From contig CAMOGA010000001.1 in assembly GCA_946613885.1 (NCBI GenBank), positions 23,640 through 87,639 of the forward strand: DNA of 64,000 nt, read 5' to 3'. Shown piece after piece: positions 11,577 through 17,426 of the stretch (positions are counted from its first letter, which is position 1; each line of letters starts with the position of its first letter). The position numbers were made by a program, and so were the translations under genes. This DNA comes from an uncultured Pseudomonadota bacterium. GTDB lineage: Bacteria; Pseudomonadota; Alphaproteobacteria; Rs-D84. The notes beneath the pieces are model-generated. The model was given only the letters and a program-made list of their open reading frames with translations, searched no databases and was not told the DNA's origin.

Positions 11577-12617
11577 CTAATCACAATCTAAATCTTGTAA
11601 TTTTTGCTCTAACAATAATTGTAATTGTTGATCTGAATTGTTATTACTGCCATTGTTCGGATTATTATTAACAATATTATTGTTGGTTTGATTATTGGCA
11701 TTATTAGTATTATTGTTATTGCTGTTATTATTAGTGTTGCTGTTACCAGATGTATCATCAACACTATATTTCGCAATAGCAGATTGTACCTGAGCATAGA
11801 AATTTTCTGTTTTCAAGGCATTTGCATTTACACTGTCATTACCAAACACAGATTGTAAACCACTGTTATTCAATCCAACAATTTGTGCAGAACGCAATAA
11901 TGGCGCACCAGAATCCCCGCCAGAACTGTCGCAATCTGTTTCTACCATATTTGCACCGCCAGGAAGTGTTCTCAATATATTACATTTCTGAACTTTAAAA
12001 TTATCAATATCACCAAACAATGGTTTTTTACCAGAGTTTTTTAATTGTTGTTCAACCTTACGATTAATACATTCAAAGAAAGATGTCTTTTTGCTTTGTT
12101 CTAGTGTCTTACATTCGCTGTTATATTTTTGTACGGCTTCACTATATAAATTTTGCAAATACGGTATTTCACTATCTTCAATTATACGTAATGTGCCATA
12201 TCCGCCACGAAAAACCTGTCCAGATGTTGTCTGGGGCGTGATGGATTTATAAAACTTGCTGTCTTTGTCTGATAACAATATTGCCCAATCTGTACCATCC
12301 TGTACACCATATTGTGCATAATACACAACAGCTTTTACATTAGATTTTTCATATCCAGAACCATTCCAAAATTCTGCCGTGCATCTGTTTTTACAATTCA
12401 ACGCACAATGATCATTGGTTATTATCAAATTTTTTGATATAAAACCGCCAGTACATCTGCCACCAGAATCTGTTGTTAATTTAACAATTCCACTATATTC
12501 AGAATCCGATAAATTACCATAACTGCGATCATCGTATTGACCGACATAACCACCATATCCTGCAAAAACATTTGCAGTATACAAAGCCATTATAAACATC
12601 AAACCATGTTTCATCAT
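11577..12617 (-). CDS. Secreted trypsin/chymotrypsin-like (S1 family) serine protease with an Asn-rich low-complexity C-terminal tail.
   Basis: Signal peptide. His-box ITNDHCA and Ser-box GDSGAPL catalytic motifs. Tail NSNTNNNSNNNNTNNANNQTNNNIVNNNPNNGSNNNS. Its start overlaps the stop of the upstream gene (ATGATGA). Confidence 0.8.
   Translation of the reverse strand: MMKHGLMFIMALYTANVFAGYGGYVGQYDDRSYGNLSDSEYSGIVKLTTDSGGRCTGGFISKNLIITNDHCALNCKNRCTAEFWNGSGYEKSNVKAVVYYAQYGVQDGTDWAILLSDKDSKFYKSITPQTTSGQVFRGGYGTLRIIEDSEIPYLQNLYSEAVQKYNSECKTLEQSKKTSFFECINRKVEQQLKNSGKKPLFGDIDNFKVQKCNILRTLPGGANMVETDCDSSGGDSGAPLLRSAQIVGLNNSGLQSVFGNDSVNANALKTENFYAQVQSAIAKYSVDDTSGNSNTNNNSNNNNTNNANNQTNNNIVNNNPNNGSNNNSDQQLQLLLEQKLQDLDCD
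11590..11770. repeat. AAT/AAC-rich codon repeat encoding a poly-Asn tract.
   Basis: Low-complexity ttattattaacaat... DNA at the 3' end of the protease gene. The antisense ORF 11609..11797 is an artefact. Confidence 0.6.
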
Positions 12618-13522
12618 AATTTACTAAGTGCCTCTTCGCATGATTGTGATGCACGCAAATTCGAATTGATTGATTTCAATGTTGTTGCATTAAACACTGT
12701 TGAAACCCCTGATGCAACCATTGAAGTTCCAGCCAACACATTTGCCGCAGTATTTAAATTTTTTGTTTTTTGATCATATTTATTTTGATTTGCCAACGCT
12801 GACGTTATTGTTCCTGCCGCCCCAGTTCCAATATTAATTCCAGATGATATTGCAGATATTTTATTTTGCCTGAATACCTTGTCCATATTATCAGTACTCA
12901 ATTCACGACATTTTGAAACAGCGTTTTTCAAATTTTCGTATTGTTTACGTTCACAATCAAACATAGTTTGACCGATTTTTTGTTCATTATCTTTGATTGT
13001 ATCTAAACATGTTTGAATCATATCTTTGATTGTGTCAGATTTACTCTGATTTTTATGTGATATGACTGTTCCTGCCACCGCAGTCACAGTATTACCAGCC
13101 ATCAAACCTGTCCGAACATTACCTAATTTTGTAGCACGTGCCTGATAATCATATTTCATTTTACATAATGAATTATATTGTTCTTTTAATTCTTGATAAC
13201 GGGCCATATTTTTTAAAAAACTCACAAACTCTTGACTGGTCATATTTTTAACATTTTCCATTTGTTTATCTAACTCTTCGGCCTTTTTATCAAAATCTTT
13301 CTTTTTTATTCCTGCTACCAACGCCCCACCAGCCGCCGCGGTTCCAACGCCTGTCACGACTGTATTCGCTATTTCTGATTTTTTAATTTGTTGTAATTCA
13401 ATATTTATATCGGAACAATTTGTTCTTAGCGCACTAACAACATCGGCATATTCACACTTTTCATTACAATACGATGCAATTGGAAACAAACATAATACAG
13501 ATATAAAAACAAATATTTTCAT
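12614..13522 (-). CDS. Secreted protein of a glycine-zipper-rich family (paralog A). Four small-residue segments separated by charged helices.
   Basis: Signal peptide MKIFVFISVLCLFPIASYC; alternative upstream starts at 13531 and 13558 lack a Shine-Dalgarno sequence. Shares the motifs NTVVTGVGT..G..VAG, RTGLMAGNT.T..AG, GTITSA.AN and NTAAN.LAGTS.VASGV.TVFNAT with CDS 15652..16620. Confidence 0.6.
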   Translation of the reverse strand: MKIFVFISVLCLFPIASYCNEKCEYADVVSALRTNCSDINIELQQIKKSEIANTVVTGVGTAAAGGALVAGIKKKDFDKKAEELDKQMENVKNMTSQEFVSFLKNMARYQELKEQYNSLCKMKYDYQARATKLGNVRTGLMAGNTVTAVAGTVISHKNQSKSDTIKDMIQTCLDTIKDNEQKIGQTMFDCERKQYENLKNAVSKCRELSTDNMDKVFRQNKISAISSGINIGTGAAGTITSALANQNKYDQKTKNLNTAANVLAGTSMVASGVSTVFNATTLKSINSNLRASQSCEEALSKL

Positions 13523-13566
13523 GTATTGCATGATATCATAAATTGATATACAATACAAATCGTATT

Positions 13567-15415: not shown

Positions 15416-15651
15416 AGTCAATTATATAGATACACGACTCGGTTGATTTTGTCATTTTTTATGTTTTTTGGTTGTTTTTTGTGTCATTTATAACAAATTA
15501 TAAAAACAACAAATAATTATAATTCATTGTTTTTACTAAACAATTCCAAACGTATTTATTGATTCCATTAAAAAACATTAAAACCCACAGCAGAAGCAGA
15601 TTTGAACCATTGAACACCTGTTGAAATTAAACCTAAGTTTATGTTATAATA

Positions 15652-16620
15652 GTGATGATGTTAGGTGGGAAATATAAATTTTTTGTATTTTATTGTTGTT
15701 TGTTTTTGCCGATAGGCGCAAAAGCAGAGATTTTATCATTGGATAACGCTTTGCGTGCTACGTATACCGCATGTGTCGGTATTGATGATAGTTTAGCTGA
15801 TTTGAAAAAAATGGCTGGAATAAACACTGTTGTGACTGGTGTTGGGACTGGTTTAGGTACGGGGGCTACTGTTGCAGGTGTTATGAAAGCAAGTACAGAT
15901 ACAGAAATAGAAGAATGGGAACGAGTTTTAAACGAATTGATAGAAAAACAAGAACAGCATAATTTAAAATATGAAAAAATTTCCACTGATGCTATTTCTG
16001 TTGCTATGACTAAGGCTCAATCTGATATCAAAAATAATGATTCAAAAATTGACCAATTGACTAAAAAATCCAAGAAACTAGGTAATTGGCGAACAGGTTT
16101 AATGGCAGGAAATACCGCAACAAATATAGCAGGTGCAATTATTGCTGGAAATAATAAAGTTGATGATGATTTACAAGCACAAATTGATAATTGTAAATTG
16201 GCAGTTAAGAACTTGCAAGATTCTATCATGCAAGCAAGATTTAACGGTGAAGATGTATCAGAAGCAACAAAAATAGTAAATGTTTGTCGCGAATTTGAAT
16301 ATGTAGACATTTCGCCTATAAACAAACGTGCAAAAAATGCCATGGTATCAAGTATTATTGGTGCAACAACAGGAATGGCGGGCACAATTACATCAGCAGT
16401 TGCGAATAGTGAAAATGTTCGTAAAGACAATGAAGTAAAATCTGGTACAAAAACAGATGAAGATTGGCAAAAAGACAATAATATAAATACTGCCGCAAAT
16501 ATTTTAGCAGGAACATCAACCGTTGCGAGTGGTGTAGCCACCGTATTTAATGCAACGCAAATATCGGCAATTAAAAAAGTAGCAGTCGTTGCTGAAAAGT
16601 GTACGGGGGTACTAAAATGA
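15652..16620 (+). CDS. Secreted protein of the glycine-zipper-rich family (paralog B).
   Basis: The ORF begins GTG-ATG-ATG; the true start is probably one of the ATGs at 15655 or 15658. Signal peptide. Four motif blocks shared with 12614..13522. Confidence 0.6.
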   Translation: MMMLGGKYKFFVFYCCLFLPIGAKAEILSLDNALRATYTACVGIDDSLADLKKMAGINTVVTGVGTGLGTGATVAGVMKASTDTEIEEWERVLNELIEKQEQHNLKYEKISTDAISVAMTKAQSDIKNNDSKIDQLTKKSKKLGNWRTGLMAGNTATNIAGAIIAGNNKVDDDLQAQIDNCKLAVKNLQDSIMQARFNGEDVSEATKIVNVCREFEYVDISPINKRAKNAMVSSIIGATTGMAGTITSAVANSENVRKDNEVKSGTKTDEDWQKDNNINTAANILAGTSTVASGVATVFNATQISAIKKVAVVAEKCTGVLK

Positions 16621-17426
16621 GAAAGTTTATTATACCCGTTTTATTCGGTATTGGGGTATCTGTGATGACTAATGCATTTGCGGACGATGACCCGATGGTA
16701 AAATTACGCGCAGTAAAAACTGCCTTAAACACAGATGCAGCAAATTACATAGATAAGCAAAAATTCGTGTCTAAATTGGGGCAAATTATGGGATATGACC
16801 CTGCTGATAACGTGATGTCTGGCGGTGTTGAACTTGCACCATTCGTGACACTAAGTGATTTGAGTTATGCGTGCATGAATAGTGTGTTAGATATAAAAAC
16901 AGGTGTGTATGTCAATGAAATAAAAACCCAACAAGTTGATAAAGCAGATATATGTTATAAATTTCTGGTTGAAGTAGTACGTGCACATAATAAAGATGTT
17001 ATTAGTTTTGGTAAAGATTTAACCGAAGAAGAAAAGAATGAATTAAAAGAACTTTTTGGTGTAGCAGAATCTGATATCAAGAATATAAAACCATCTGAAC
17101 CAACCAAAAAAACGTGGTCTTTCACAACGTTTAAACCCGATAAATCCACTAAACGGTGTGAGGCGGACGGTTTTTACTTTGTAGAAAAATTAACAAAATC
17201 TCCTATTGATGGTTTTGAATTTAAAAATTGTTATTTTGAAAGTGGTACAGATAGAGTAGCTTGTTGTATGGATACAAAATATCAACACGGTTCAAAAAAT
17301 GCCGATTACTGCGAATCTTATTATTTTAAAAAAAGATTTAGCGGCAATTGCATCGTGGGACCTGTTGTTTTGGGTGATGATTACTTTGAAGGCAATGTAA
17401 ACAAATGGACAGCAGAAGATCTCTAA
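16617..17426 (+). CDS. Secreted hypothetical protein, translationally coupled to paralog B.
   Basis: An ATGA overlap links its start to the upstream stop. Signal peptide MRKFIIPVLFGIGVSVMTNAFA. Cys-containing. Confidence 0.55.
   Translation: MRKFIIPVLFGIGVSVMTNAFADDDPMVKLRAVKTALNTDAANYIDKQKFVSKLGQIMGYDPADNVMSGGVELAPFVTLSDLSYACMNSVLDIKTGVYVNEIKTQQVDKADICYKFLVEVVRAHNKDVISFGKDLTEEEKNELKELFGVAESDIKNIKPSEPTKKTWSFTTFKPDKSTKRCEADGFYFVEKLTKSPIDGFEFKNCYFESGTDRVACCMDTKYQHGSKNADYCESYYFKKRFSGNCIVGPVVLGDDYFEGNVNKWTAEDL

Follow-up and report, generated by a model that had tools for sequence, protein, structure and literature searches.

Contig CAMOGA010000001.1, from an uncultured alphaproteobacterium of the order Rs-D84, encodes two secreted proteins of about 300 residues, here called A and B, and the question raised by their locus is what these proteins are and with which of their neighbours they act. 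The window that we analysed comprises 64,000 nucleotides of this contig (assembly GCA_946613885.1), and the first-pass annotation, made from these letters without database searches, had read the two genes as part of a symmetric module, arranged around cvpA and a dsbA-like gene, for a secreted and possibly pore-forming factor. We find that A and B belong to a large undescribed family, here named F, of gut Alphaproteobacteria of the order Rs-D84 (Candidatus Enterousia and relatives), and that the conserved unit is F together with a coupled downstream partner, a pair and not a triad. Bacteria of this order are common gut inhabitants of humans, ruminants, horses and birds, are uncultured, have genomes below 1 Mb from which most biosynthesis is missing, and are thought to depend on partner cells (PMC12306168).

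Family F and its conserved blocks

The first-pass annotation had taken A and B for paralogs, and this is borne out. BLASTP aligns them end to end at 36% identity (E 9e-35), and both match over their full length (A at E 7.6e-115, B at E 5.9e-126) the hidden Markov model (HMM) built from alignment A1 of 39 sequences, by which, together with that alignment, family F is defined. In a six-frame translation of the window this HMM finds A and B alone. A database of 5.8 billion proteins holds 1841 homologs when queried with B, which is listed there as P0001 with 321 amino acids (aa) from the ATG at 15655, and 948 when queried with A; every one of them is unnamed or 'hypothetical', and none of the 240 homologs among the matches listed carries a precomputed Pfam domain. 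A profile search of 1.84 billion cluster representatives (E<=1e-3) places F in 473 clusters at 50% identity. The genome matches, the best of which is 90% identical, lie in metagenome-assembled genomes labelled Candidatus Enterousia or gut or rumen 'Alphaproteobacteria bacterium', and there are multiple copies of F per genome in these lineages.

Scans of A and B against Pfam, NCBIfam and PHROGs gave nothing above any cut-off, the Pfam families Gly-zipper_Omp, Gly-zipper_OmpA, Gly-zipper_YMGG and Rick_17kDa_Anti did not match either protein even at E up to 1, no homolog of F occurs in 50,697 phage records, and sequence and profile searches of the PDB returned noise only. The model TIGR04527 matches 5 of the 39 members of A1 (best E 5.4e-5; A at 20.4 bits, E 3.2e-4), but these scores of about 20 bits fall far below its curated cut-off of 125, and F is not a member. 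The first-pass annotation was therefore right that the family is undescribed, since it has no relative in Pfam, NCBIfam or the PDB, nor, as set out below, by fold, and does not map to a known structural family.

A and B share four small-residue blocks (Table 1), which had been noticed in the two sequences and which proved to be a property of the whole family. Invariant in A1 are four Cys and, within the blocks, a number of Gly, Thr, Asn, Arg and Ser positions. Across 322 full-length members each block is a run of 18-22 consecutive columns in which charged residues have a frequency of 0.00, bordered by near-invariant positions (K/D after block 1, R before block 2, N and R after block 3, N before block 4). 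Conservation, taken as how often on average the commonest residue of a column occurs, is highest in the blocks, at 0.70-0.77, and lowest, at 0.40, in the stalk, a charged coiled-coil hairpin. Being the most conserved and charge-free columns of the family, the blocks are not low-complexity coincidences. The stalk is typically 44-104 aa long and reaches about 400 aa in long forms, in which all four blocks are retained; the contigs of these long-stalk members are either too short or carry no partner.

Both proteins have typical Sec signal peptides, as had been predicted, that of A beginning MKIFVFISVLCLFPIAS.. and that of B ending ..LFLPIGAKA before a Glu. Mature A combines the hairpin and the four charge-free helical blocks with 7 Cys, and B, after its signal peptide, has the same blocks and stalk with only the 4 family-invariant Cys. 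Glycine-zipper-like motifs of the form [GAS]xxxGxxx[GAST] occur in blocks 1-3 of both proteins, starting at residues 62, 139, 224 and 228 of A and at residues 63-72, 149, 233 and 237 of B, and by these A and B belong to the transmembrane glycine-zipper class, which is a motif class and not a homology family.

Coupling to the downstream gene

Gene context was surveyed at 84 loci, namely the window, 80 genome loci and 3 metagenome contigs, in which open reading frames (ORFs) were called and the proteins clustered. Of 87 F genes, 86 are followed on the same strand by a gene that starts at the stop codon or at most one base from it, and the lone F gene without a coupled partner lies at a contig end. 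The junction is an ATGA overlap in 82 of the 87 cases, a one-base overlap of the TAATG/TAGTG type in three and a one-base gap in one; most junctions read ..TGYACGGGGGTAYTRAAATGA..., with a Shine-Dalgarno-like GGGGG or GGAGG embedded in the last codons of F. The operon links that had been read in the window are of this kind, the stop of A overlapping the start of its protease by 4 nt within ATGATGA and the stop of B overlapping the start of its partner in ATGA. By these junctions F is, near-universally, translationally coupled to its downstream gene.

What surrounds the pair varies. Orthologs of A with 53-70% identity (L084, L086 and L088) always have the protease next, and their flanks differ, while F pairs in general are flanked by unrelated housekeeping genes (ribosomal protein S4, tRNA synthetases, gyrA, ABC transporter) or by recombinases. 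In a neighbour-joining tree the F proteins that precede a protease fall into at least three separate lineages, a distribution that implies exchange of partners. Large serine recombinases (Resolvase, Recombinase and Zn_ribbon) adjoin F pairs at L008, L015, L022, L031, L048, L051 and L052, and tyrosine integrases are found near two A-type F-protease pairs (L084, 1465-2379; L088, 10088-10912); given such genes beside them, some F modules may sit on mobile elements.

The best sigma-70-like promoter match of the region lies at 15621-15660 (+), with TTGAAA-18-TATAAT, an upstream TG and 11 of 12 positions matching. It ends at 15650, only 1-7 nt before the candidate starts of B (15652, 15655 and 15658), and because of this nearness the B mRNA may be leaderless or begin further downstream.

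The partner proteins

The partners all have a signal peptide and many Cys, and fall into a class of about 1000 aa (67 loci), S1 proteases, a class of about 294 aa, the 269-aa protein of the window and several singletons. The signal peptides of both partners in the window are typical of Sec export (..ANVFA before Gly in the protease of A, ..TNAFA before Asp in the partner of B). The secreted S1 protease that had been assigned next to A is genuine: it matches Pfam Trypsin (PF00089) at 33.3 bits against a cut-off of 20.6, and the catalytic triad H70, D110 and S236 is invariant in 9 partner proteases. Its C-terminal part (11577-11800) consists of a long linker of low complexity, rich in Asn, and a short conserved tail ending in DCD; a tail of the form ..LQD(L/F)DCD (..LQDLDCD in this protein) is common to the A-type proteases, and the linkers differ. 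Mature A-type F proteins contain 7 Cys and their proteases 9 or 11 in all four of four divergent pairs, whereas the counts are even for B and its partner (4 and 8). With odd numbers on both sides, the composition of the A-type pairs fits, and does not prove, one intermolecular disulfide between F and the protease.

In the partner of B, a lineage-specific protein, an acidic linker joins a helical N-terminal part to a C-terminal domain rich in Cys, and there are only 4 homolog clusters of it in the database in which B has 1841 homologs; an AlphaFold2 (AF2) model from these 4 sequences reached a predicted local distance difference test score (pLDDT) of 44, too poor to use. The non-protease partners share an N-terminal domain, some 100 aa long, in which two Cys are conserved, and an HMM of this domain from the large class matches both the 294-aa class (1e-7 to 1e-17) and a 425-aa singleton (6e-17). 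In the class of about 1000 aa, which is absent from the window, the N-terminal 620 aa or so form a single homology group (n=55), in which 15 Cys are invariant and one Gly-rich segment is strongly hydrophobic, and the C-terminal 250 aa belong to 13 or more types unrelated to one another; this is the arrangement of polymorphic toxins, a constant N-terminal region with swappable C-terminal domains.

Near the C terminus 24 of these 55 proteins carry HExxH, and isolated weak Pfam matches in this region are to SprT-like, to the DUF6782 metallopeptidase, to PRANC and to TraI_middle, the last in two proteins. PRANC, an F-box-like domain of poxviruses and intracellular bacteria, matches a single partner at 4e-5 (last 450 aa, alignment A3), and this single, weak match could indicate a eukaryotic target. 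The C-terminal domain of the 294-aa class is homologous to virion-associated cell-wall hydrolases of phages, with matches to an Acinetobacter phage endolysin (3e-15), to T7 gp16-like internal virion proteins and to PHROG 873 (2e-12). An ORF of about 95 aa overlaps by 4 nt the stop of an HExxH-type partner at L012, L039 and L050 (3 of 20), and could encode an inhibitor or immunity-like protein for that type. F itself was considered as an immunity protein and rejected, as it lies upstream and is conserved across unrelated partners.

The polymorphism of the downstream gene points to F as the carrier or anchor of variable effectors rather than as a stand-alone, bacteriocin-like toxin. It also bears on the idea that F is a dedicated periplasmic chaperone or inhibitor, which would keep its hydrolase inactive or export-competent and have no membrane role. 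Strict coupling implies production at 1:1, the partners are potentially self-damaging hydrolases, and long helical 'tentacle' hairpins occur among periplasmic holdases. Such a protein would nevertheless have to serve unrelated partner folds with one conserved scaffold, conservation in F peaks at a charge-free surface of transmembrane length, rich in glycine and threonine, rather than at a typical inhibitor loop, and inhibitors and immunity proteins usually co-vary with their targets, yet F is far more conserved than its partners; we consider a chaperone or inhibitor improbable.

Structure and membrane character

The AF2 model of B is all-helical (pLDDT 78.6, predicted TM-score 0.56). Helices 43-105 and 111-166 form a long antiparallel charged hairpin, whose base is made of blocks 1 and 2, helices 220-250 and 268-320 bear blocks 3 and 4, and the four invariant Cys stand at opposite ends of the zipper segments; confidence peaks in the Cys-bearing helices. 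A Foldseek search of the model against the PDB gave no match at E<=0.001, the similarities to AhlB, HblL1 and TolC-type proteins being insignificant, and TM-scores against BFVD did not exceed 0.39.

These comparisons bear on whether F could be an alpha-helical pore-forming toxin in the manner of ClyA, Yax or Hbl, with the partner as activating protease or second pore component. In its length of about 300 aa, its helices with a long coiled coil, its hydrophobic glycine-rich segments and its Sec export F would suit such a part; Foldseek gives weak matches to AhlB and HblL1, and the Gly-rich hydrophobic region of the partners of about 1000 aa has Hbl L1 as its best PDB profile match (E 0.007). 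The two fold matches are insignificant, however (E >=0.69, TM-score <=0.27), and F does not show the fold of the ClyA superfamily (ClyA, Hbl, Nhe, Ahl, Yax); the Hbl L1 match is limited to the hydrophobic stretch of the large partners, and partners that include a cell-wall hydrolase, S1 proteases, HExxH proteins and others are too diverse for pore accessories. A pore-forming toxin of this kind is thus distinctly unlikely.

As to the blocks themselves, their hydrophobicity is weak, with Kyte-Doolittle values of 0.9-1.6 and, for the best 19-residue windows, insertion energies of +3.8 to +6.3 kcal/mol on a simple additive translocon scale. Such hydrophobicity makes ordinary Sec-integrated transmembrane helices unlikely and fits a protein that is exported first and inserts into a membrane later. 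Four conserved charge-free surfaces of transmembrane length would, on the other hand, be hard to reconcile with a freely soluble bundle. Of the earlier suggestion that F proteins form membrane-inserting glycine-zipper helices, the motifs in blocks 1-3 and the helical model support the zipper helices, and a membrane-active role is, judged from composition, plausible.

The same segments could be placed differently, with F as an integral inner-membrane protein of four weakly hydrophobic transmembrane helices that anchors or regulates a periplasmic hydrolase, much as coiled-coil regulators of cell-wall hydrolases do; the hairpin would then be cytoplasmic, and the N terminus, the loop between segments 2 and 3 and the C terminus, and with them all four Cys, periplasmic. 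This topology accounts for the four charge-free segments of transmembrane length and puts the invariant Cys all on one side, it obeys the positive-inside rule in that the KKSKKLGNWR before block 2 is strongly positive and the sequence after it acidic, a stalk of variable length fits more easily into the cytoplasm, and the partners include a peptidoglycan hydrolase as well as proteases. Yet the segments are far below the hydrophobicity normal for Sec-integrated helices, a cleavable AxA signal peptide followed by only about 30 periplasmic residues would be unusual, and polymorphic partners, multiple copies in genomes below 1 Mb and recombinase neighbours suit effectors more than housekeeping regulation. 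We regard the inner-membrane topology as unlikely.

A model for F and its partners

The reading that we prefer, and hold tentatively, is that F may act at the membrane as the carrier or anchor in exported effector complexes of two components. F and its partner, each exported by Sec and made by coupled translation, would associate in the periplasm in a stoichiometric complex, in which an intermolecular disulfide may join F and the protease of A-type pairs. F would be the constant, membrane-active subunit, its glycine-zipper bundle inserting into a membrane after export. This could be the producer's own outer membrane, for secretion or surface display, or alternatively the envelope of a partner or prey cell, for delivery, and there F would carry or position the variable enzymatic subunit.

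Several points weigh against this picture. A stalk of 65 to about 400 aa is hard to move across a membrane and would have to stay on the cis side; if it does not, the inner-membrane topology is right. The confidence of the AF2 model is lowest precisely in the blocks (65-75), the insertion energies come from a simple additive scale, and as F has no fold relative its function is argued from composition and gene context. A docking mode common to all partners is unproven, as the partner of B matches the N-domain HMM only at E 0.03 and the proteases are without this domain. No immunity-like gene consistently follows the partners, and the downstream genes do not track the C-terminal type, so that an antibacterial role is not established and a toxin-immunity arrangement is not evident. 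Finally, a distant long-stalk member of 638 aa (P0347; L093, 6001-7917) has no coupled partner, so that coupling may not extend to the family's most divergent members. Downstream of P0347 a NUDIX gene comes after a gap of 420 nt, and 4 kb upstream there is a ShlB/TpsB-type transporter.

A more specific reading, and a rather doubtful one, is that the F-partner pairs constitute a new Sec-dependent two-component effector-delivery system of an obligately partner-dependent gut alphaproteobacterium, in which F would be an alpha-helical translocator or anchor of a new, glycine-zipper class and polymorphic hydrolases (proteases, a cell-wall hydrolase, metalloprotease-like domains) would be displayed on, or delivered into, the envelope of the cells on which the bacterium lives. 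With hundreds of sequence clusters and several copies in a tiny genome, each coupled to a different secreted hydrolase, F is a strong candidate for host-interaction machinery, and the phage-type cell-wall hydrolase among the partners suggests that the target may be another bacterium. Should F indeed be a translocator, the few routes by which diderm bacteria bring folded enzymes, once exported by Sec, to the cell surface or past it would be joined by one of a new type.

The cvpA neighbourhood and other genes of the window

Between the loci of A and B lie cvpA and a gene for a CPHC oxidoreductase, and a gene for a 137-aa protein precedes A (Table 1). The first-pass annotation had combined these with the paralogs into a symmetric module, and had proposed a triad of membrane protein, paralog and protease, and neither arrangement holds outside this strain. 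A strong intrinsic terminator follows cvpA (14057-14039); upstream of the 137-aa ORF, which in this strain is probably in the same transcript as A, there is a promoter-like site. When the cvpA, CPHC and 137-aa proteins were compared by tblastn with 95 loci, only the same-strain contigs L001 and L002 matched; the F loci examined for neighbours carry up to 8-10 kb of flanks, and the ortholog locus L004, 90% identical, has different upstream genes and none of these three. The triad accordingly recurs nowhere else among the F loci. With a terminator of its own and no linkage beyond the same strain, the arrangement around cvpA is incidental, and cvpA and the oxidoreductase are unrelated housekeeping neighbours in this strain. 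That the two paralog loci, cvpA and the oxidoreductase form one module for a bacteriocin-like pore former is suggested by their adjacency in the window, and a periplasmic oxidoreductase could in principle oxidise Cys-rich proteins; against the terminator, the linkage restricted to same-strain contigs and the many unrelated housekeeping contexts in which F pairs sit, such a module is extremely improbable.

Table 1. Positions of A, B, their parts, their partners and the genes between them, in window coordinates.
Feature	Position	Strand	Remarks
A, F-family paralog, 302 aa	12614..13522	minus	alternative starts 13531, 13558
A block 1	13307..13366	minus	NTVVTGVGTAAAGGALVAGI
A stalk	13118..13306	minus	charged coiled-coil hairpin, spacer of blocks 1 and 2
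A block 2	13049..13117	minus	VRTGLMAGNTVTAVAGTVISHKN; family-invariant Arg just before
A block 3	12788..12859	minus	ISAISSGINIGTGAAGTITSALAN
A block 4	12668..12754	minus	NTAANVLAGTSMVASGVSTVFNATTLKSI
Partner of A, secreted S1 (trypsin-like) serine protease	11577..12617	minus	9 Cys in mature form
137-aa protein upstream of A	13567..13980	minus	two predicted transmembrane segments
cvpA	14061-14780		Pfam Colicin_V 1.3e-23
CPHC glutaredoxin/thioredoxin-like protein	14880-15347		signal peptide
B, F-family paralog, 322 aa	15652..16620	plus	length from GTG start
B block 1	15823..15885	plus	NTVVTGVGTGLGTGATVAGVM
B stalk	15886..16086	plus	charged coiled-coil hairpin; least conserved part, length varies family-wide
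B block 2	16087..16152	plus	WRTGLMAGNTATNIAGAIIAGN
B block 3	16342..16407	plus	MVSSIIGATTGMAGTITSAVAN
B block 4	16486..16572	plus	NTAANILAGTSTVASGVATVFNATQISAI
B coupling junction	16596..16620	plus	GGGGGT inside last codons (C-T-G-V-L-K), then ATGA
Partner of B, secreted 269-aa protein	16617..17426	plus	8 Cys

Just downstream of the B operon, at 17454-18404 (+), lies a lineage-specific ORF with 12 Cys, which was found only on same-strain contigs and has no Pfam or NCBIfam match; its true start is probably an internal Met (MKHLIGFLSK..), with which a signal-peptide-like stretch opens. At 3980-6853 (+) an outer-membrane beta-barrel-like protein (weak Surface_Ag_2) is followed by a 573-aa secreted protein rich in Cys and Gly, and the two recur in L063 (15103-16941) at 60% and 38% identity, as a separate conserved pair that is not related to F. 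The 573-aa protein (5132-6853) had been thought to carry a block similar to those of A and B, a claim that we drop: the F HMM does not match it even at E<10 with filters off, and it was likewise rejected as a relative of the partners of about 1000 aa.

Genes of a type IV secretion system (T4SS) are found at 51804-56479 (+), with a 229-aa ORF, a CagX/VirB9-like gene (52496-54022, Pfam 4.5e-19) and a TrbI/VirB10-like gene (54029-56479, 1.9e-13), so that this reduced genome keeps a T4SS. A link between the T4SS and F was considered, as the window has virB8/9/10-like genes and at some loci a VirB10-like cluster lies upstream of F; these upstream genes proved to be a MacB/FtsX-type ABC transporter and housekeeping genes, and no functional link emerged. 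A tripartite efflux operon at 57978-62946 (+) encodes a TolC-like outer-membrane efflux protein (6.8e-43), a 208-aa ORF and an AcrB-family pump (5.8e-185). The window also contains three further large proteins of surface type or orphan character, a 1049-aa protein with Listeria-Bacteroides repeats (48485-51634, minus strand; 4.3e-34), an outer-membrane protein of the Protochlamydia Pom family (22568-24148, plus strand; 2.2e-9) and an 817-aa protein without a family match (9113-11566, plus strand).

Comparison with known systems

CvpA is a widespread housekeeping inner-membrane protein; the cvpA between the A and B loci is genuine, and its linkage to F is not conserved. The Mycoplasma proteins MG_279 and MG_280 (the 'two-TM' family TIGR04527) are weakly similar to F in that hydrophobic segments flank a coiled coil, at the subthreshold scores given above, and a literature search on them found only unrelated papers. 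The Mycoplasma MIB-MIP system is a multi-copy two-gene unit with the serine protease last, in an organism of reduced genome, and is like the F-protease pair by analogy.

Charge-free helices with [GAS]xxxGxxx[GAST] motifs are shared with the N terminus of VacA, with CdzC/CdzD of Caulobacter, with Tse4, an effector of the type VI secretion system (T6SS), and with the Pfam Gly-zipper families. F is much larger, is exported by Sec and has a coiled-coil stalk, and CdzC/D use type I secretion. The two- and three-component alpha-helical pore-forming toxins of the ClyA superfamily (YaxAB/XaxAB, Hbl, Nhe and AhlABC) resemble F in their length of roughly 300-400 aa, their helical make-up with a coiled-coil stalk and a glycine/alanine-rich hydrophobic head, their single operon, and their being soluble first and inserting later. 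F differs from them in having four separate charge-free segments and four invariant Cys, and in that its partners are enzymes and not paralogous pore subunits.

The polymorphic effector systems CdiB-CdiA (two-partner secretion), LXG toxins with their small helical Lap partners, and the Rhs/T6SS adaptor-effector pairs likewise have a conserved gene directly upstream of an effector whose N-terminal region is conserved and whose C-terminal domains are many and unrelated, occur in multiple copies per genome and lie in some cases beside recombinases. Neither in sequence nor in fold is F related to TpsB, Lap, PAAR, VgrG or known adaptors, and unlike those systems it has no consistent immunity gene, and both it and its partner use Sec signal peptides. 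On these likenesses and differences of sequence and gene order, F and its partners would best be described as a candidate polymorphic effector module that is exported by Sec and served by an unrelated, undescribed helper.

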